This document shows positions 1 through 9,200 of a stretch of DNA of 64,000 bases, in pieces. This stretch comes from an uncultured Chloroflexia bacterium (GTDB taxonomy: Bacteria; Chloroflexota; Limnocylindria; Limnocylindrales; CSP1-4), in NCBI GenBank assembly GCA_963720715.1, contig CAVRGM010000002.1, positions 220,446-284,445 of the forward strand. The letters run 5' to 3'. The notes below the pieces were generated by a model that was not told where the DNA came from, did not search any database, and saw only the letters and a program-made list of their open reading frames with translations. Each line of letters begins with the position of its first letter. Position 1 is the stretch's first letter. The position numbers were made by a program, and so were the translations under genes.

Positions 1-1486
1 CGCCCGACAACGCACGATCCGTGACCCGGACGATGACCGACTGCGCGGTGGTCTCGACTTCGATATCGACCGGGACCTCGGCCTGTCCCTGGCTGCCGTA
101 TTCGATGGCGTTCATCGCCGTCTCGCTCACGGCGGTCTTGAAGCGTTCGAAACGGGCGGGCGAGAGGCCCAGATCTGCGATCGCGGCCGCCACCCGGTCC
201 ATGGCCAGGCGTTCGTTGCCTTCTTCGCCGGGGACGGAGAATGCCGTGACGATCGCGGGATCGGCCGCGGCTCCCCCGGTGTCTTCCGCGACACCCGCGG
301 ACCGGTGGAGGGTGACGAGGGTGATGTCGTCTTCCTGTTCCCAGTCCGGGCCGGTGAACAGGTGGAGCGTATCGAGCAAACGGTCGAGCAGCTCGCTGCC
401 CGCATCGTCAACGGCCATCTCATCGCGGAGCCGCGGGAAGCCGTACATCGCCTGACTCGGATCGTGGGCCTCGACGAGGCCGTCCGAGTAGAGGAGGACG
501 TTGTTGCCGGGGGCGATGATGCCTTCCGTCTCCTCGTAGTGGATCCCCGGCATCAGGCCAAGCGGCATCCCGGTCGCACGGAGCTCGATGACGCCCTCGT
601 CGGTGCGGATGTACGGCAGGTTATGGCCGGCATTGGCCATCACGATCCGGCCGGTTTCCGGTTCGAGGATGGCGAACAGACAGGTCACGAACATGCGCGC
701 CGGCATCTCCGGGCAGAGCAGTTCGTTGGCCCGCTCGAGGATCACGCCCGGCGAGTCGCTCCTGGACGCCTCTGCGCGAAGGACGCTGTGGGTCCGGGCC
801 ATGACCAGGGCCGCCGGGACACCCTTGTCGGTCACATCGCCGACGGCGATCCCGATGCGCCCGTCGGACATCTCGATGAAATCGTAGAAGTCACCACCCA
901 CGGCGCGCGCAGGCCCGTAGTACGCGGCGATCTGCCATTGGGCCAGTTTCGGCAGCTCCCGTGGCAAGAACTGCTGCTGGATGAGGGTCGCGACGCGCAT
1001 CTCCTGCTCCAGGCGCTCGCGCTCGGCCGCTTCGTGGGCCTGCTCGCGCACGAGCTGGGCGACCCGGATCGCCGGCGCGGCCTGTGCAGCGAGGGTCGTC
1101 AGGAGCCGCCGGTCGTCGGTGGAATAGTCCTGCTCGGAAAGTCGCGGGCCGAGGTTGAGGGTGCCGATGAGCTCGCCCTGCGACACGAGCGGGACGATGA
1201 GGGCGACCCCTGCCGCGCGCATGGCATCGACCGCCGGTGTGTCCAATTCCAGTCGAGAAAGGTCGACCGGGCCAGGAGCTGTCTGAAGGTAGGCCAGAAG
1301 CGGGTCCGACTCCGGGATGTCCACGTTGATCATGTCGGTCGCCGGCGCAGTAGCGGCCGCCGGGCCGACGCCGGCGGCATCTGATGCCTCGGGGTCGACA
1401 ACGGCATCCGACATCGGACGGGCCGTGTCGCGGACGTCGCCGCCTCGACCAAGGAGGCGGCGGATCGGACGGGTCAATTCACTCAT
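1..1486 (-). CDS. GAF + SpoIIE/PP2C phosphatase + HATPase_c (RsbW-like) fusion; runs off the window edge
   Basis: Manual translation gives PARAVGGDFYDF, GDVTDKGVPAAL, ANAGHNLP, LLYSDGLVEA and QEDDITLV, then TAVSETAMNAIEYG. ATG at 1486 is preceded by GAGG. Absent from the ORF track because the stop lies outside the window. Confidence 0.9.
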   Translation of the reverse strand, partial: MSELTRPIRRLLGRGGDVRDTARPMSDAVVDPEASDAAGVGPAAATAPATDMINVDIPESDPLLAYLQTAPGPVDLSRLELDTPAVDAMRAAGVALIVPLVSQGELIGTLNLGPRLSEQDYSTDDRRLLTTLAAQAAPAIRVAQLVREQAHEAAERERLEQEMRVATLIQQQFLPRELPKLAQWQIAAYYGPARAVGGDFYDFIEMSDGRIGIAVGDVTDKGVPAALVMARTHSVLRAEASRSDSPGVILERANELLCPEMPARMFVTCLFAILEPETGRIVMANAGHNLPYIRTDEGVIELRATGMPLGLMPGIHYEETEGIIAPGNNVLLYSDGLVEAHDPSQAMYGFPRLRDEMAVDDAGSELLDRLLDTLHLFTGPDWEQEDDITLVTLHRSAGVAEDTGGAAADPAIVTAFSVPGEEGNERLAMDRVAAAIADLGLSPARFERFKTAVSETAMNAIEYGSQGQAEVPVDIEVETTAQSVIVRVTDRALSG

Positions 1487-1558
1487 CTCGGACCTCACGA
1501 TGCGGGACAGCCGTCCGGGAATCGTTACGAAGTCGTCGGCTGTACGGAACTCGTGATG

Positions 1559-1736
1559 TCACACCGCGTCCTCGGGGTCGCCGCGCAGCCAGATCCGGCC
1601 ATTCGCCGGCCGGACGGCGGCATCGACGGTCGCCAGCGCGTCGTGCCTGATGGTCGGCAGATCGACTTCGTCCCGCAGCCGGGCCGAGCAAGGCCGGGGA
1701 GCGTTCGGCTCCCGTCTCGACTCGTGCCGTGCTCAT
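1559..1736 (-). pseudogene. Frameshifted remnant of a membrane-sensor paralog (3' end only)
   Basis: Alternate frame reads SARLRDEVDLPTIRHDALATVDAAVRPANGRIWLRG, which matches the C-termini of the three adjacent paralogs. Confidence 0.7.
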
Positions 1737-2926
1737 GTGTCGCCTCCGGGATGCCGGAGCCACAACCTGACACCGACCGGCCGGACCGCTGCATCGACCG
1801 CGGCCCGCGTCTCATGACTGATGGTCGGCAGGTCGAGCTGGTCGCGAAGACGCTCGCCGAATTCGGCCTGTAGTCGCTCGCCGTCGTAGCGGCGACGATC
1901 GAATCGGTGGTCGACAGCCCCCTGGACGCGAGAGCGGACCCGGGCGAATGATGCAGCAACCACGAGCGTCGAGCCGGCGACCGCCAATGTGCTGCCGTTG
2001 GTCAGTGGTTCGAGCGCAGCCGTCAGTGCGAGCACCAGCAGGACGAAACCTCCCACGAGCAACCCGGTGACGACGGCCCAGCCGATCGTCCGACTGATTA
2101 TCCGGTCGATCTCGTACAGCCGATAGCGCAGGACCGCGATGCCGATGGCGATCGGAAACAGGGTCAGGGCGACCCCCACCGCAAGGTCGCCCACGTCGGA
2201 GTACTGGTTCGGTCCGGTTCCCGCCCCGTAGGTGAGCATCGCCGTAGCGACGACCGCCGCGGCGGCGGCGGCCCACTTGAGTTGTGCGCGTTCCACGGCT
2301 CCGGCATGTCGCCATCGGCCGACGAGCGAGAGTGCGGCGATCCCGACGCACACGACCAGCAATCCGTAAACGGCCTCCCACGCCGTCGCCAGGCTATTCG
2401 GTGGTGGGTCGAGCGGGTTCCGCAACCATGCGTAGTAGGGAAACAGGCCGGGCCGGAGCGCCACTCCGAGGACGAGGTAGGCGGCAGCAGCGGCGGCGAT
2501 CGCCACGAGCCAGCGCCACCGAGGCGACGGCAATCGCCCATCTGGAAAGATGAGGAAGAGGATCGCGACGAGGAAGAACAACGGCCCATCGAGCAGACTG
2601 ACCGTCAGCGCGGCGACCTCTGCCCCCGGCGGAGCATCGGTCTGGCGGATCCAGGCGTCCAGCGAGACGTAGCCGGCGACCGGTAGCCCGAGCGCCAAGA
2701 CCACAGGGCCGACCCGATTGCCGGGTCGTCGCACCATGATGAGCCAGCCGACGATGAGATAGGCGCTGGTGGCGGCGAGGAATACGAGGCTGAGGATCCT
2801 GTGGGACGGGTCCTGCACGATGCGCGCGATCGTCGCGATCGTGGCCAACAGGATGGCGCCACCTGCCAAGCCACCGACACCCAACGTTCGACCTCGGGCC
2901 ACCGCCGGCTGCCCCAAACTCGTCAT
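1733..2926 (-). CDS. Multi-pass membrane sensor-like protein, paralog 3 (no catalytic output domain)
   Basis: Many hydrophobic helices; motifs FPDGRLPSPRWRW, ERAQLKW and IGIAVLRYRLYEIDRII. ATG at 2926 overlaps the upstream stop (ATGA). Confidence 0.85.
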   Translation of the reverse strand: MTSLGQPAVARGRTLGVGGLAGGAILLATIATIARIVQDPSHRILSLVFLAATSAYLIVGWLIMVRRPGNRVGPVVLALGLPVAGYVSLDAWIRQTDAPPGAEVAALTVSLLDGPLFFLVAILFLIFPDGRLPSPRWRWLVAIAAAAAAYLVLGVALRPGLFPYYAWLRNPLDPPPNSLATAWEAVYGLLVVCVGIAALSLVGRWRHAGAVERAQLKWAAAAAAVVATAMLTYGAGTGPNQYSDVGDLAVGVALTLFPIAIGIAVLRYRLYEIDRIISRTIGWAVVTGLLVGGFVLLVLALTAALEPLTNGSTLAVAGSTLVVAASFARVRSRVQGAVDHRFDRRRYDGERLQAEFGERLRDQLDLPTISHETRAAVDAAVRPVGVRLWLRHPGGDT

Positions 2927-4110
2927 CGCGTCCCGTCCCGCAGCCACACGCTCATGACGGTCGGTGCCATGACCCCCCGGACGGTGGCATCGAGATCGGC
3001 GGTGACGGTGGCGAGATCGACCTCGTCACGCAAGCGTTCGGAGAACGCGGCACTTGTCCGCTCCCCGTCGTAGCGGCTCCGATCGAACCGTCGGTCGACC
3101 GCCCGCTGGACCCGCCGGCGCAAGGGCTGGAACAGGGCGAACGCGAGCAGGGTGGAACCGGCCACGGCCAGCGTCTCTCCGCCGGTATCGGTCACCCCGG
3201 CCAGGACCGCCTCGAAGGCGATGACCGCACCCGAGAACACGATCACCAGCAGCCCGGTCACCAGGCCATAGCCGATGGTCCGCGACACGATCCGGTCGAT
3301 GTCGTACAGCCGATAACGCAGCACGGCGATCCCGACGGAGATCGGGAGGAGAAGCATCGCCACGAAACCCAGGAGGAACAGACCGTCCCCCAACCCCGAC
3401 AGCGCCGGGACACTGAATGCTGATAACACGAATGCGGCCGGGAACGCGATCGTGGCAAGACCGGCCGTTGCCAGCAACCACTTGACCTGCTCGCGGAGGA
3501 TCGGGTCGCCCCGATGGAACCTGACCCACAGAGCTGCCGCCCCACCCCCGAACCCGATCAAAGCCGTCAGGTTCGCGAAGTCATCGAGCGCATCAAGGAA
3601 CGGCACGAGCGCGGGGATCCCGAGCGGGTTATCGGGTCCCGTCTGCCCCGCCTTGCCGGGGTAGAAGAGGCTGGCGATCGTGATGGCCGCCATGGCGAGG
3701 AGCGTGAGCCAGGCGACCCACCGGAAGCGGCGCGACGGAAGGTGGCCATCCGGAAATACCAGGGGGATGCCGATCAGTGCGATGACGACCGGAAAGACAT
3801 AGAACAGATCGGCCACCACGCCAAACGCCACGGATCCCGGCCAGATCGGTTCTGCCGCGGATCCGAGTCGCGAATAGGTCGACAGACTCACCCCCGCGGT
3901 CAACAGGATCCCCGACCCGAGGAGCAGGACGCCGACGAGATTGCCCGGGGCGCGTGTCATGAGTAGTGCGCCGACGAGCATGAGCGATGCCGCGATGCTG
4001 AAGAAGAGGGCGTTCGCGCTGAGGTCCGATGCTTGGTCGACCGCCGCCGCCAGTACGAATGTGGCCATCGCCATGGCGGCAACGACCCATGGCCATCTCC
4101 TCCGCCTCAT
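2923..4110 (-). CDS. Multi-pass membrane sensor-like protein, paralog 2
   Basis: FPDGHLPSRRFRW, REQVKW, VGIAVLRYRLYDIDRIV and RLRDEVDL. Confidence 0.85.
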   Translation of the reverse strand: MRRRRWPWVVAAMAMATFVLAAAVDQASDLSANALFFSIAASLMLVGALLMTRAPGNLVGVLLLGSGILLTAGVSLSTYSRLGSAAEPIWPGSVAFGVVADLFYVFPVVIALIGIPLVFPDGHLPSRRFRWVAWLTLLAMAAITIASLFYPGKAGQTGPDNPLGIPALVPFLDALDDFANLTALIGFGGGAAALWVRFHRGDPILREQVKWLLATAGLATIAFPAAFVLSAFSVPALSGLGDGLFLLGFVAMLLLPISVGIAVLRYRLYDIDRIVSRTIGYGLVTGLLVIVFSGAVIAFEAVLAGVTDTGGETLAVAGSTLLAFALFQPLRRRVQRAVDRRFDRSRYDGERTSAAFSERLRDEVDLATVTADLDATVRGVMAPTVMSVWLRDGTR

Positions 4111-4231
4111 CGTGACCTGCCCAGGAACCGGGGGTCCCGACGTGGGCCGTGCCGTGACTGCCCGGATCGTGGATCGAGGTCGGCGCCGACGGGGGCACGC
4201 TCGATTCCGTTTGGATGGCAGGTCAGCGGGA

Positions 4232-5419
4232 TCACGTCGTCACCTTCTGACTTGTCCGTCCGGGGGTCGTCACGCGGACCGCGTCGGACGGATCTCCGTG
4301 ACGAGGACGCAACCACAACCCGAGCCGGGTCGGCCTGACAGCCGCTCGAACCGTCGCATCCAGATCGGCCGTGACCGTCATGATCTCCACCTGGTCCCGA
4401 AGGCGGTTCGCGAATGCTTCGGTCGTCCGCACCGCGTCGTATCGGGCGCGGTTGAACCGCCGGTCGACTCGGTCGCGAACGATTCGAAGCGCCGGCTGGA
4501 AGATCGTGAATATCACCAGGGTCGAGACGGCCACGGCGATCGAAGCGCCCTGGCCGTACTGGGCGAGGGCGGTCGAGAGGGTCAGCACCATGGCTCCGAA
4601 GGCCGTGGCGAGGGCGCCGGTCACGACGGCATACGACACGGTCCGGCTGACGATGCGGTCGATCTCGTACAGGCGATAGCGCAGGACCGCGATCCCGATC
4701 ACGACCGGCAGGAGGAGGAGCGTCAGGATGGCCACGAGCCAGAAGGCGGCGGCCAACGCCGGGTACGGGGTGCTGTCAGGATCGGCGTTCGACAGCGCGA
4801 GGGGGAACGCGATCGCGGCGAGCGCAGCGTCCGCCATGAACCACTTGACCTGCTGGCGCTGGATGGCGTCGCCACTGCGGAATCTGACGCCGACGGCGAT
4901 GACGGCTCCCGCGAATCCGATGAGCGTGGACACCAGGACGATCGGGTCGGTAACGCTGCCCGAGCTCGAGTCCGGGCCGCGGAGGACTCCGACCGTCCAG
5001 GCGGCCAGGCTGAGGACCAGCGCCCCGCCCACCCAGCGGAACCGACGGGAGGGCAGGTGACCATCGGGGAACACGAGCGGGATCCCGATCAGCGCGATCA
5101 TGATCGGGTAGAAGAACAGGATGTCGTTCAGGGTGTGGGCGACGTCCGAGCCGGGCCACGGCGGGGAAGCCGCCCCGCCGACGTTCGCGTAGGCGCCAAA
5201 GCCACTTGATGCCACGATCAGGATCCCGGCGACCATGAACATCGGGCCGATCGGGTTCGACGGCACTCGCGTCCAGAGCAGCGCTCCGATGAGGACGAAC
5301 AGGATCACGATCGGCAGCCACAGCAGGACGGAGGGATCCGAAAGCTGGACCAGGCTGATGCCGACGAAGGTGGAGATGGCGAGGCAAGCCGCTGACCAGG
5401 CGATGACGCGGCGGTTCAT
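4232..5419 (-). CDS. Multi-pass membrane sensor-like protein, paralog 1
   Basis: FPDGHLPSRRFRW, RQQVKW, IGIAVLRYRLYEIDRIV and RLRDQVEI. Confidence 0.85.
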   Translation of the reverse strand: MNRRVIAWSAACLAISTFVGISLVQLSDPSVLLWLPIVILFVLIGALLWTRVPSNPIGPMFMVAGILIVASSGFGAYANVGGAASPPWPGSDVAHTLNDILFFYPIMIALIGIPLVFPDGHLPSRRFRWVGGALVLSLAAWTVGVLRGPDSSSGSVTDPIVLVSTLIGFAGAVIAVGVRFRSGDAIQRQQVKWFMADAALAAIAFPLALSNADPDSTPYPALAAAFWLVAILTLLLLPVVIGIAVLRYRLYEIDRIVSRTVSYAVVTGALATAFGAMVLTLSTALAQYGQGASIAVAVSTLVIFTIFQPALRIVRDRVDRRFNRARYDAVRTTEAFANRLRDQVEIMTVTADLDATVRAAVRPTRLGLWLRPRHGDPSDAVRVTTPGRTSQKVTT

Positions 5420-5582
5420 CGAACCGCGCCTCGTTCGGCGAGGCGGGCGGAGGCGTACCGGGTCATGGGGCAGGCTCTCGGCAGGCCGGTCGAGCGGCGA
5501 TCGGGGTCATCACGTTGGATCCTGGCCCTTCAGCGTCCGCATAACGTTACGGGATGCGGATGTTGCGCGGTACCGTTACGGC

Positions 5583-8438
5583 ATGACATCGAGCCGGCCC
5601 ATCTTGCATGTTCGCCTGCTCGGACCGATGGAGTTGATGGTCCGCGACCGCCCTGTCGTCGTGGATACCCGCAAGGCCCTGGCGATCGTCGCGCTGGTCG
5701 CGGCTGAGCATCGGCCGTTCGCGCGGGAGGAACTGGCCGCCATGTTCTGGCCCGATGCCGATGACGAAGCGGCGCGGGGCGCGCTGCGAAGGACGCTCTC
5801 GTCGCTCAGGACGGCCATCGGGCAGTCGGGCTTGATCATCGAGCGGAGCCAGGTCGCGCTCGACCCCGCGCACTCCCAAGTCGATCTGGACGATCTGGAG
5901 CGCCTGGCCGCGTCAGATCGTCTCGACGACCTCGATGCAGCGTCGCGGCTCGCCCGTGGCCCATTCATGGCCGGCTTCGCACTCCGGGACAGCCCCGACT
6001 TCGACGATTGGCTGGCCGTCCGAACCAGCCGGGTAGAGCGCCTCGTCGGCGACCTGCTCGACCGGCTGGCCGCGGCTCGGAGCGGACACGGGGACCTGCC
6101 GGGAGCGATCGAGGCGGCCAGCCGCCGAGTCGACCTGGACCCTCTTGACGAAGCGGGTCAACGGCGCGTCATGGCTCTCCTCGCAGCGTCGGGTGACCGG
6201 GCCGGCGCGATCCGCCAATACCGCGGGTTGGTCGGCCTGTTCGAGCGTGAACTCGGCGTGGCCCCACTGCGCGAGACGACCGACTTGTACGAAGCAATTC
6301 GCGAAGGTCGGATCATCCCGGACGAGACCCCGGCCCCGGTCGACGTGCCCGCATCCGGCGTGGATCCCTCCGCCGAGCGCCCTGGGCTGACGCGGCCGCG
6401 ACTGGTCGGGCGCGACCACGATCTCGCGGCGATCCTCGATCCCATCGGTAGGGCGCGCCGGGACGGTCGTCTCGTGATCATCGAGGGTGAGGCCGGTATC
6501 GGAAAGACGCACCTGGTCGAGACCGCGGTGGCGGCGATCCAGGCGGGCGGGGGCAGGGTCCTCGCGGGACGAGGCTATCCGGGCGAACATGGCATCCCGT
6601 ACGGGCCGATCGCCGAGCTCCTTCTCGCCGGGATGGCCATGCCCGGTGGGCTCGAACGAATGGCTGACCTTGACCCTCTGACCCGACTCGAGATCGGTCG
6701 CCTCGTGGACCTGCCCGCATCGGTGCGTCCGCCGGCGCACGCCTCGCCGGCGACCGGCGAGGGCGCGCAGTTGCGGCTTCTCGAATCGCTCAGCCGAGCC
6801 CTCACGAGCCTGGTAATGGTTCCGGGCCGTGGCGTGATCTGGCTTGACGACCTCCACCTGGTCGACGACCCCACTCGCGAAACCGTGGCCTACCTTTCCC
6901 GACGACTGGCCGGCCGACCGGTGACCCTGATCGTCGCCTGGCGTCGTGAAGACCTGTCCGCCGAAGCCGTCGTGACGGCGGGCGAACTCGTCAAGCTTCG
7001 AGGAACGACGCGGCTCGTTCTTGGCCGCCTCGATCGGACCGGCGTTGCCGAGATGGTTCGTGCGACGCGACCCACGCTGGCGGTCGATGACGCGTTCGTG
7101 GACGCGCTGAGCGCGAGTTCAGAAGGACTACCCCTCCATGTCGCCGAGGTGCTGGCGAGTGGTGAGGATCCGGGCCTGGCGATGCCCGGCGGCGTCAGAG
7201 CCCTGCTCACCGAGCGGATCGCGTCGGTCGGCGAAGCGGCGGGGCAGATCCTGGCCGCCGCCGCGGTGATCGGTCGAGTCTTCGATCTGGGCACCTTGCG
7301 ACAGGCAAGCGGCCGGTCGGAGGATGAGACCGTGACGGCGCTCGAAGAGCTCATCCGGCGCGGCTTCATCCGTGAGTATCCGGATCCCGTGGGTGGGTCC
7401 GTCCGCTACGATTTCAGCCACGGCAACCTGCGCGACGCCGCGTACGAATCGACCAGCCTGGCTCGCCGCCGGTTGCTGCACCGGCGGACTGCGGATGCGT
7501 TCCGCGCCGAGCCCGGGATGGCGGCCCGGGACGACGTCAGCCTCCCCGCCCTGGTCGCCTTCCACGAACACGAAGCCGGTCGTTTTCCGGAAGCAGCCGA
7601 GGCATATCGCGAGGCTGGAGAACGAGCCCTCGCGGTCTTCGCGAATCGCGAGGCGATCGCCTACCTGGAGGCGGCATTGGCGCTCGGCCATCCCGACACG
7701 TCAGGGATCCACGTCCGCATCGGCGAATCACGGGCGCGTCTCGGACGGTATCCCGCGGCCATCGAATCGTTCGAGGCGGCGGCCGCGGCGGCCGATCCGG
7801 ATCAGCTGCCGGCGATCGAACTGAGCCTGGGACGGGTGGACCGCCGGCGGGGCGATCTCCCAGGGGCCGCCAGCCACCTTGATGCCGCGCTTGCGGCTGC
7901 GGACCTGGACCCCCTCGTGCGTGTCCGGGTCCTCGTGGAACAAAGTCTGGTCTCGCTCGGGCGCGGCGCGCTAGACCAGGCGTCGGCATCAGCGGGCCTG
8001 GCGCTCCAGGCGGCGGACCAGGCTGACGACGACCCGGGTGCCGGCATGGCCGAGCGGATCATCGGACTCGTGGCGCTCGAACGGGGTGACGTCATCGGTG
8101 CGCGGTCCGCACTCGATCGGAGCCTGGCCCTGGCGAGGTATGACCCGGAGCCGACCGCCTCGATCGCGGCGATGACCGCGCTTGCCCGGGCGTTGGCCGC
8201 GGATGGATCAGTCGACGACGCGATCCGGTACGCCATGGAAGCGATCGAGGCCTGTCAGCGTATCGGGGATCACCACCTCGAAGCTGCCGTCGAGAATCAC
8301 CTGGCCGACCTGCTTCATGACGCTGGTCGCGAGCTCGACTCGATGGCGCACCTCAAACGAGCCGTTGCCCTGTTCGCCGAGATCGGTGATGGCGTCCCGG
8401 CTTCCGAGCCTGGGATCTGGGCGCTGGCGGCCTGGTAG
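5583..8438 (+). CDS. SARP/BTAD transcriptional regulator with AAA ATPase and TPR-like C-terminus
   Basis: N-terminal VRLLGP winged helix; BTAD (FDDWL, DPLDE); Walker A GEAGIGKT; Walker B WLDDLH. TACCGT lies 6 nt before ATG 5583. Confidence 0.9.
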   Translation: MTSSRPILHVRLLGPMELMVRDRPVVVDTRKALAIVALVAAEHRPFAREELAAMFWPDADDEAARGALRRTLSSLRTAIGQSGLIIERSQVALDPAHSQVDLDDLERLAASDRLDDLDAASRLARGPFMAGFALRDSPDFDDWLAVRTSRVERLVGDLLDRLAAARSGHGDLPGAIEAASRRVDLDPLDEAGQRRVMALLAASGDRAGAIRQYRGLVGLFERELGVAPLRETTDLYEAIREGRIIPDETPAPVDVPASGVDPSAERPGLTRPRLVGRDHDLAAILDPIGRARRDGRLVIIEGEAGIGKTHLVETAVAAIQAGGGRVLAGRGYPGEHGIPYGPIAELLLAGMAMPGGLERMADLDPLTRLEIGRLVDLPASVRPPAHASPATGEGAQLRLLESLSRALTSLVMVPGRGVIWLDDLHLVDDPTRETVAYLSRRLAGRPVTLIVAWRREDLSAEAVVTAGELVKLRGTTRLVLGRLDRTGVAEMVRATRPTLAVDDAFVDALSASSEGLPLHVAEVLASGEDPGLAMPGGVRALLTERIASVGEAAGQILAAAAVIGRVFDLGTLRQASGRSEDETVTALEELIRRGFIREYPDPVGGSVRYDFSHGNLRDAAYESTSLARRRLLHRRTADAFRAEPGMAARDDVSLPALVAFHEHEAGRFPEAAEAYREAGERALAVFANREAIAYLEAALALGHPDTSGIHVRIGESRARLGRYPAAIESFEAAAAAADPDQLPAIELSLGRVDRRRGDLPGAASHLDAALAAADLDPLVRVRVLVEQSLVSLGRGALDQASASAGLALQAADQADDDPGAGMAERIIGLVALERGDVIGARSALDRSLALARYDPEPTASIAAMTALARALAADGSVDDAIRYAMEAIEACQRIGDHHLEAAVENHLADLLHDAGRELDSMAHLKRAVALFAEIGDGVPASEPGIWALAAW

Positions 8439-8456: not shown

Positions 8457-9200
8457 TCAGTTCGGCGCCTGCACCTGATTGGCCGGATCGTCGATGTGGG
8501 TCACCTCGATGGAGAAGTTCTCCTGACCGGCGAAGCCGGAGGACTCCCAGGCGACGAGGATCCCGCTGTCGTCGGCGATCCATAGATCGATGATCGCGTC
8601 CGCTGGAACGCCGGTGAGACCGCCGGCCAGCGTCGACGAGTCGATCCGATAGTGGGTCGCACTGACCCCGTTCTTCTCCTCGGTACCGACGGCCAGGGCG
8701 CTCTGGGTCCATGCCGGTGAGGCAAAGGCCGCGACGTACAGGGACGGATCGAAGGCCTGGAGCATCGTGCCGGCGAGCCCGGACGTGTCCTTCTGGAACG
8801 ATACGCCATCTTCCGAGACCCAGATGTCGGACCCGATGACGATGAACGTGGAGCCACCGGCGCTGACCTTGCGTGAGAGCGTCGGCTTGGTCACGACCGT
8901 CGCCGAGAACGCTTCAGCGCCATCGGCAGTCACGCTGACCTGATACGAATCCACCTTGTCCAGGTTGGCGACCAACCCGCTGACATCGAACGATGGGATC
9001 GCGCCGGCCGGGATGCCCGGCGTGGCCTCACCACCGGGCTCGGCCGAAGTGGGCGTGGCCTGTGGCTCGACGGAAGTCGGAGTGGGCTGGGCGTCGCCCG
9101 GAGCCGTGGTGGCTGCAGAGCCGCCACAGGCGCTGACAACGATCGCACTGAACATGAGCAGCGAAGCAGCGCCGGGCAGGGCGCGACGAGATCGGTTCAC
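8457..9200 (-). CDS. Lipoprotein (possibly LppX/LprAFG-like fold)
   Basis: Signal peptide with lipobox VSAC, Pro/Thr linker, and GTEEKNGVSATHY motif. Confidence 0.7.
   Translation of the reverse strand: MNRSRRALPGAASLLMFSAIVVSACGGSAATTAPGDAQPTPTSVEPQATPTSAEPGGEATPGIPAGAIPSFDVSGLVANLDKVDSYQVSVTADGAEAFSATVVTKPTLSRKVSAGGSTFIVIGSDIWVSEDGVSFQKDTSGLAGTMLQAFDPSLYVAAFASPAWTQSALAVGTEEKNGVSATHYRIDSSTLAGGLTGVPADAIIDLWIADDSGILVAWESSGFAGQENFSIEVTHIDDPANQVQAPN

Follow-up and report, generated by a model that had tools for sequence, protein, structure and literature searches.

At the start of a 64,000-nt stretch of DNA from an uncultured soil Chloroflexia bacterium (GTDB lineage CSP1-4; assembly GCA_963720715.1, contig CAVRGM010000002.1, positions 220,446 to 284,445; hereafter the window), three tandem genes on the minus strand encode multi-pass membrane proteins that end without an output domain (heads A, B and C). 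They are followed downstream by a head relic and then by a gene for a GAF, phosphatase and kinase-like protein that has no membrane domain (the hub). The question raised by this locus is whether, and in what way, the membrane proteins are connected to the cytoplasmic one. The analysis covered window positions 1-8438 and the source genome (G000; 3.0 Mb, 90% complete), in which the cassette was placed at G000:C2; the coordinates of all features are collected in Table 1. The reading favoured here, with a probability of roughly 0.62, is that the heads are alternative inputs that dock on a single partner-switching hub by completing its GAF fold, whereby the physical docking and the sign of the regulation are what we infer.

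A GAF domain divided between head and hub

That the heads stop before a GAF or output domain had already been noticed in a first-pass annotation made from the sequence alone. This stands insofar as the heads have no GAF or output match, but the stop lies inside the GAF domain rather than in front of it, i.e. after helix 1 and strand 1. Searched alone against Pfam, heads A-C gave no GAF match, and the GAF match of the hub is limited to the C-terminal profile positions 80/91-133/135 (PF01590/PF13185/PF13492). In the single-chain homologs P0145, P0142, P0143, P0147 and P0159 the match spans profile positions 2-3 to 132-133 and starts within the tail (in P0145 at residue 368, which is the start of the last tail helix), from which it follows that the heads carry helix 1 and strand 1 of the domain and the hub the rest. 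Judged by profile coverage, neither chain spans the whole GAF profile, and the domain is complete only as head plus hub.

The structure models are consistent with such a division. A model of the complex between the hub GAF remainder and the tail of head B gave an interface score (ipSAE) of 0.78 (0.77-0.80 between runs), compared to 0.00 in all three controls, with at least 93% contact agreement between the runs and a predicted local distance difference test score (pLDDT) of 76 for the partner. In this model, tail residues 383-391 pair with the last GAF strand of the hub (P0004, residues 110-118), and the tail helix 366-381 packs against the C-terminal GAF helix of the hub. Modelled as monomers, both pieces look incomplete: the strand-1 segment of head B (residues 382-395, P..WLR) has a pLDDT below 50, and the GAF part of the hub alone consists of a two-strand hairpin, short helices and a long helix (127-177) that runs into the PP2C domain. 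The idea that tail and hub could be modelled as a complex was thereby borne out, the best control scoring 0.00, although what the model shows is a fit of the tail to the hub GAF remainder and not binding.

On the favoured reading, the sensor of a partner-switching cassette would have been cut in two inside its GAF domain. By contributing helix 1 and strand 1, a docking head would complete the GAF sheet and tether the hub to the membrane, and the state of the head would then be passed on, via the completed GAF domain and the linker helix, to the balance between phosphatase and kinase output of the hub on the STAS proteins. The heads, which differ from one another chiefly in the membrane and outer parts, would take turns on the one hub or compete for it.

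The hub and its presumed substrates

The description of the downstream gene as GAF, PP2C and RsbW-like without a membrane domain proved correct, with the GAF domain being partial as outlined above. The hub open frame comprises 499 residues in the window and 558 amino acids (aa) in the genome. Its phosphatase domain is matched almost end to end (PF07228, SpoIIE/PP2C; E 1.4e-48, profile 1-191 of 192), and the motifs GGDFYD, GDV.D, SDG and DD.T, which we take to be the metal-binding residues, are invariant across 35 hubs. The predicted kinase domain (HATPase_c_2, PF13581) was matched with an E of 5.2e-08 on the protein as truncated by the window and is present in full in the genome copy, and a match to the anti-sigma F model TIGR01925 (2.5e-06) stays under the cut-off of that model.

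The hub is the sole PF07228 match of the genome and also its sole GAF remainder of this type (other matches span profile positions ~18-93 inside long multi-GAF proteins), compared to a total of five heads (A-E), none of them fused to an output domain, so that the genome appears to hold one hub and many heads. The two STAS genes that follow the hub are presumed to encode its substrates. With a PPM phosphatase, an RsbW/SpoIIAB-like domain and STAS proteins encoded alongside, the cassette has by its domain content three of the parts by which a partner-switching system is recognised.

In the AlphaFold2 model of the hub alone (pLDDT 86.5), residues 1-53 are disordered (pLDDT <50). Headless hubs carry a conserved basic peptide at the N-terminus (M..LTRPIRRLLGR type, both arginines at least 90% conserved, n=35 hubs), followed by a variable Ala/Pro-rich linker of 25-60 residues and then by the GAF remainder. 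In the window hub, peptide and linker are at 1321-1486 (hub residues ~5-60); the fused homologs P0145 and P0142 have neither peptide nor linker. The peptide may be a tether to the heads. A role as a substitute in cis for GAF strand 1 was considered and finds no support, given the disorder of residues 1-53 in the hub model. The hub likely starts at the ATG at 1486, which would be the first codon of this peptide.

The heads

Three tandem paralogs with a divergent N-terminal membrane part and a conserved tail had been described at first sight, and the alignment agrees. Head A is overall 49% identical to B and 36% to C, with pairwise identities between the three of 28-43% over residues 1-262, 53-61% over 263-330 and 46-59% over 331-391, and the motifs LRYRLY.IDR, RF.R.RYD, RLRD and WLR are invariant. 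The AlphaFold2 model of head B (97 homologs; pLDDT 88.4) has 10 long membrane helices and three cytoplasmic tail helices. Over the 97 heads, conservation peaks at the cytoplasmic loops and tail helices (top-residue frequency 0.76-0.87) and is minimal at the outer loops (0.18-0.52); the conserved parts are the four cytoplasmic loops, the last membrane helix and the tail, and most membrane helices and the outer loops are variable. A conserved cytoplasmic face combined with variable outer parts fits a common transducing face with different inputs.

No family was assigned to heads A, B and C from Pfam or NCBIfam, and a Foldseek comparison of the head model with the PDB gave no match at E<=0.001. 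The membrane part is not assigned to a seven-transmembrane (7TM) fold: residues 25-279 align with 7TM bundles (rhodopsins, G protein-coupled receptors) at a VIA-align Z of 10-12, which is below the caution line of ~13 for helical bundles, so that the likeness may be generic. HisKA_7TM (PF16927) gave no match at E<=0.1 for any of the three heads and only 19.1 bits, against a gathering cut-off of 28.6, on homolog P0159; the nearest named Atlas cluster scores 0.84, which is a lead only. The stand-alone form is nonetheless widespread, with 5032 relatives at E<=0.001 among 8000 scored candidates, and together with the five unfused heads of the genome this indicates, from the searches, that the head family is not a chance occurrence.

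Fused relatives and conservation of the layout

The first-pass annotation had also stated that this membrane module is usually fused to a GAF domain with a kinase or SpoIIE domain. Fused relatives do exist, SpoIIE-bearing ones included, but proteins closely related to the heads more often stand alone. Among the 120 long relatives listed for head B, 9 carry SpoIIE (some of these also HATPase_c_2) and most of the others HisKA_3/HATPase_c. From the side of the hub, a profile search of 1.84 billion proteins was carried out, and the best 150 representatives (50% clusters) were classified as fused head+GAF+PP2C (75), headless (25), missing the start of the GAF remainder (47) or other (3). The expected fusions to SpoIIE were thus recovered from either end.

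In a FastTree phylogeny of 94 hub regions (74 fused, 19 headless and the window hub as the 20th split row, with 57 of the 150 representatives omitted because of incomplete coverage or an ambiguous label), fused and headless forms are interleaved. The tree implies 15 changes between fused and split, at least six of them forced by starred branches, compared to a mean of 18.2 after shuffling. No count of fission events is claimed, since the headless rows may include truncated gene calls and branch support is only of the SH (Shimodaira-Hasegawa)-like kind. The nearest fused relatives of the window hub in this tree are P0250 and P0142.

Hub orthologs were found at E<=1e-20 in 20 of 24 same-genus genomes and in none of 16 genomes from the neighbouring family of the same order (G025-G040, reduced, 1.0-1.4 Mb). 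Near-full-length hub matches lie in open frames of 523-677 aa, which means that these hubs are headless. In all 12 same-genus loci the heads (3 to 6 copies counted per locus) are followed by the hub and then by two STAS genes, with the BTAD regulator (see below) within the locus; four of the 12 loci are broken by frame shifts that resemble assembly errors.

A wider scan of species-representative genomes yielded 78 loci that belong to several phyla and hold between 1 and 8 heads each. Their sources are Limnocylindria and other Chloroflexota metagenome-assembled genomes (MAGs), Actinomycetota (a Nocardioides isolate and MAGs labelled Cellulomonas, Rubrobacteraceae, Acidimicrobiia, Solirubrobacterales and Thermoleophilia) and a few bins labelled Acidobacteriota or Gemmatimonadota. 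The Nocardioides isolate is a cultured carrier, with eight heads (locus L085). A hub is present in 48 of the 78 loci (in 47 including the PP2C part) and a regulator in 50, so that the neighbourhood proposed for the cassette recurs in all same-genus loci and well beyond them. In 40 of the 48 hub loci a head ends less than 1 kb upstream of the hub on the same strand, and only in a single one of the 78 loci, which is ridden with frame shifts, do head and hub share one open frame. In six of the remaining eight hub loci the hub directly follows the regulator, and the heads are found elsewhere in the locus, mostly after the STAS genes.

Selection on the heads and turnover of the array

A ratio of nonsynonymous to synonymous substitutions (dN/dS) near 1 had been named as a sign that the heads are pseudogene-like. 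Relative to the two closest genomes, however, the ratio is 0.19-0.22 for head B and 0.18-0.21 for head C, compared to 0.09-0.14 for the hub, 0.17-0.20 for STAS_a and 0.07-0.08 for STAS_b. By this measure heads B and C are under purifying selection.

At the same time, 14 of 24 same-genus genomes hold a hub of 75% identity or more, the best match of head B in these genomes reaches at most 53%, and an ortholog of head B was found in only 2 of 80 genus genomes (79% and 75% identity). As far as sequence comparison goes, the heads turn over faster than the hub, although differential loss of paralogs could give the same pattern. The site of the relic holds a full-length last head in the two closest genomes, and the relic and the intergenic DNA that follows it align with the 3' end of that head. 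Such relics are, by this alignment, scars of array contraction; similar head relics occur in locus L003.

Two further observations concern the tail-coding ends. Between head B and its orthologs in L103 and L104, synonymous divergence (dS) is 0.23-0.34 in the tail, i.e. ~4x below that of the membrane part (1.1-1.2), and in the closest genome the tail of the last head closely resembles that of head B. The pattern hints at gene conversion among the tail-coding ends.

The regulator and a shared promoter box

The divergent gene upstream of head A encodes a regulator of the SARP (Streptomyces antibiotic regulatory protein) kind, with matches to BTAD (PF03704, 3.8e-14), AAA_16 (PF13191, 1.1e-19) and TPR_12 (6.1e-13). 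Its true start is most likely the conserved ATG at 5583 and not position 5235. No Trans_reg_C match, as an N-terminal OmpR-type winged-helix DNA-binding domain would give, was found at E<=0.1, the similarity to the NCBIfam model BagI/FevR (residues 151-417, 5.8e-05) is far under the cut-off, and that to the AfsR model is also weak.

The heptamer CGTAACG occurs three times in the window, compared to 3.41 expected, and is thus not enriched as a count; its weight comes only from the positions of the sites and their conservation across genomes. All three copies lie on the gene strand in intergenic DNA of the cassette, upstream of the hub (1523-1529) and between regulator and head A (5545-5551 and 5574-5580). 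The genome has 70 copies, and nowhere except between regulator and head A do two of them lie within 60 nt of each other. For the composite CGTAACG-N6-GRACG there are four sites in 3.0 Mb, one each at the head array, the hub and head E and one on C4. The box of head E (CGTAACG-N6-GAACG) lies 86 nt before its start (G000 C3:642817, L002 ~8818), which suggests that this solitary head and the cassette share a regulon. The fourth copy (G000 C4:360103) lies inside an apparent AAA+-type coding sequence, in the P-loop region, and is probably due to chance. In the 78 other loci, 44 of 48 hubs are preceded by a CGTAACG on the same strand, and all 45 intergenic regions between regulator and head contain one as well.

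The box consists of two repeats ~11 nt apart; 12-14 nt after them comes a -10-like hexamer, and ~7 nt after the hexamer an ATG. This spacing suggests that the hub and head-array transcripts are nearly leaderless and points to the ATG at 1486 as the start of the hub. A scan of positions 1-5700 for consensus sigma-70 promoters gave no sites, and the two terminator-like sites in the same region, compared to 1.6 expected, are uninformative. The earlier proposal that the divergent BTAD/AAA regulator controls the cassette gains from this conserved direct-repeat box at both the head-array and hub promoters. By analogy with SARP systems, the SARP/AAA/TPR regulator would bind CGTAACG-N6-GRACG and probably drives the head array, the hub and head E through it.

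Docking weighed against its alternatives

Of the explanations that compete with docking, the one that survives best, unlikely as it is, holds that heads and hub are co-regulated neighbours without contact, the shortened GAF domain being a self-sufficient dimerisation or linker module and the head tails pairing in some other way. The hub GAF remainder is indeed modelled confidently on its own (pLDDT 85-95), but the tail strand, disordered when head B is modelled alone, becomes part of the GAF sheet in the complex model (0.78 versus 0.00). Likewise, the heads' lack of a family assignment leaves room for another function, whereas the break between the two genes falls within what is one Pfam GAF match in the fused homologs, and 75 of the best 150 hub-profile representatives join the two parts in a single chain. 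Solitary heads far from any hub do exist; nevertheless, a headless hub was found elsewhere in 11 of the 14 genomes that were sampled via a solitary head.

It is very improbable that the heads serve another output (e.g. a headless GAF-histidine kinase encoded elsewhere) and that their adjacency to the PP2C hub is incidental. Such an arrangement would fit the long relatives of the heads, the majority of which carry GAF, HisKA_3 and HATPase_c and not PP2C, yet no other open reading frame (ORF) of the genome matches the start of the GAF remainder and a HisKA_3-type match lies near the heads in only 1 of the 78 loci.

Even less can be said for stop-codon read-through or frameshifting as a way of making the last head and the hub as a single polypeptide. 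In the window, head C, the relic and the hub are in one frame with only two TGA codons between them, but last head and hub share a frame in only 8 of 40 loci, which is below the one-third expected by chance and makes a read-through fusion unlikely, and the hub has its own conserved promoter-like box and conserved N-terminal peptide. The notion that the heads are decaying leftovers of gene fission or duplication (i.e. pseudogenes in waiting), to which the relic tail between head C and the hub and the gain and loss of array copies between close genomes lend some colour, is largely refuted by dN/dS values of 0.18-0.22, intact head frames, the 5032 stand-alone relatives and a layout that is kept across several phyla.

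Docking of the heads on the hub has points against it as well. The mark that the complex model passed is one that 58 of 80 solved complexes and 2 of 110 mismatched pairs also attain, counts that apply only roughly here because the model was fed our own alignments. Tail and GAF remainder together make up a familiar fold, and part of the score may therefore come from the model's memory of solved GAF structures. The columns of GAF helix 1 and strand 1, over the 97 heads, are less conserved (0.55-0.61) than the preceding tail helices (0.80-0.87). For 30 of the 78 loci the DNA retrieved contains no hub (contig ends truncate many of these loci), and in 3 of the 14 solitary-head genomes, which are of uncertain completeness, no hub was found. 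Head D has no exact box upstream, the N-terminal peptide of the hub is unexplained and docks nowhere in the monomer model, and no sigma-factor family turned up in a scan of 10 neighbouring ORFs, a search that did not extend to the remaining genome.

Docking could be part of a wider scheme of plug-in receptors, which is put forward tentatively and seems rather doubtful as a whole. A fast-turnover array of 7TM-like heads would compete for the hub, with GAF completion as the coupling step, such that the repertoire of inputs could be swapped without touching the output. The N-terminal peptide would then be a second tether, to the conserved cytoplasmic face of the heads, the SARP regulator would close a feedback loop via the same box, and any repeated fission and fusion of head and hub on the tree would reflect that split and fused forms are functionally interchangeable states.

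Organisation of the locus and neighbouring genes

The G+C content of the window region is 67-70%. The stop of head B and the start of head C overlap as ATGA at 2923-2926, and heads A and B are 121 nt apart; head C likely starts at ATG 2926, and the overlap suggests that it is translationally coupled to head B.

Table 1. Features of the cassette and related genes in the source genome (window coordinates unless a locus is given)
Feature	Position	Strand	Description
Hub	2..1498	minus	Headless GAF remainder, PP2C and HATPase_c_2 (RsbW-like); cut by window start
Hub SpoIIE/PPM phosphatase domain	302..868	minus	PF07228
Hub GAF remainder	1043..1333	minus	~Residues 56-152; beta-hairpin, helices and long C-terminal helix into PP2C; without helix 1 and strand 1
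Hub-upstream direct-repeat box CGTAACG-N6-GGACG	1512..1529	minus	Putative SARP site and hub promoter
Head relic	1559..1687	minus	~43 codons of tail (RLRD..WLR) and TGA stop; without canonical start codon
Head C	1733..2947	minus	404 aa counted from GTG at 2947; likelier start ATG at 2926
Head B	2923..4110	minus	395 aa
Head A	4232..5419	minus	395 aa; 10-helix membrane protein; tail end corresponds to GAF helix 1 and strand 1
Regulator/head A divergent intergenic region	5534..5580	minus	Two CGTAACG boxes, 29 nt apart; proximal one with GGACG second repeat; putative head-array promoter
SARP-like regulator	5583..8438	plus	BTAD, AAA_16 and TPR; divergent from head array; frame open from 5235
STAS_a	L001 14497-14829		Directly after hub, beyond window; PF01740, E 4.1e-08
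STAS_b	L001 14153-14500		Directly after hub, beyond window; PF01740, E 2.9e-15
Head D	L001 12086-13297		Full-length head; downstream of STAS genes, outside window
Head E	L002 8904-10109		Solitary head, contig C3

Between STAS_b and head D there is a gap of ~850 nt in which no ORF has a Pfam match, and head D is followed by an FAD/NAD-binding amine-oxidase-like gene (L001 10666-12213). Head E is flanked by a mandelate-racemase-like gene and a photolyase gene. Just past the regulator lies an ORF of 247 aa (8457-9200, minus strand) without a Pfam family, of which the N-terminus looks, by eye, like a lipoprotein signal, with a hydrophobic stretch that closes with ..SAC.

Relation to known systems

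No published description of the split-GAF layout of head and hub was found in the literature searched, which did not include supplementary files. The closest relatives are the uncharacterised single-chain head-GAF-SpoIIE(-HATPase_c_2) proteins P0145 (908 aa, 'ATP-binding SpoIIE family protein phosphatase [Acidimicrobiales bacterium]'), P0142 and P0250. These have an identical order of domains (membrane module, tail, GAF, PP2C, kinase-like) and align end to end with head plus hub, whereas the system in the window is cut after GAF strand 1, has the N-terminal piece multiplied into 3-8 divergent head genes and has gained, on the hub, an N-terminal peptide and a disordered linker that P0145 and P0142 lack.

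Sensor-linker-PPM phosphatases comprise RsbU and RsbP of B. subtilis, RsbZ of C. difficile (GAF-GAF-PPM), OsaC of S. coelicolor and Rv1364c of M. tuberculosis, and in these (Baral et al., eLife 2025, PMC12143880) an N-terminal sensor is joined to the PPM domain by a long helical linker and the substrates are STAS proteins. Rv1364c also has a fused anti-sigma-type kinase, as does the hub in the window. The sensor domain of these phosphatases is whole, either within the one chain or bound by a separate, whole RsbT. In the window it is divided over two gene products, with many putative alternative donors and what would be a direct input from the membrane. A further difference is that no sigma factor was seen in the window cassette among the neighbouring ORFs scanned.

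The completion of a fold by a second protein has a parallel in donor-strand complementation among chaperone-usher pilus subunits, in which an incomplete beta-sheet fold is completed by a strand of another protein. That fold is unrelated, extracellular and structural, whereas the heads would donate a helix and a strand and the donors would be alternative receptors.

Large SARP regulators of the AfsR type combine SARP, NTPase and TPR parts and act on heptamer direct repeats at their target promoters. The regulator in the window resembles them in its BTAD, AAA_16 and TPR domains and in the direct repeats with ~11-bp spacing just upstream of a -10-like element, and differs in that its putative targets are a sensor array and a partner-switching hub and not antibiotic biosynthesis genes.

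Partner-switching phosphatases and GAF sensors are textbook parts. If the favoured reading is true, splitting a sensor domain among gene products, with many donors and one acceptor, would represent a novel means of connecting many inputs to a single output, and signalling would here make natural use of protein-fragment complementation. Soil lineages that are abundant yet poorly known (Limnocylindria, Actinomycetota) commonly carry the cassette, and the reading would give a function to a very large unannotated family of membrane proteins.

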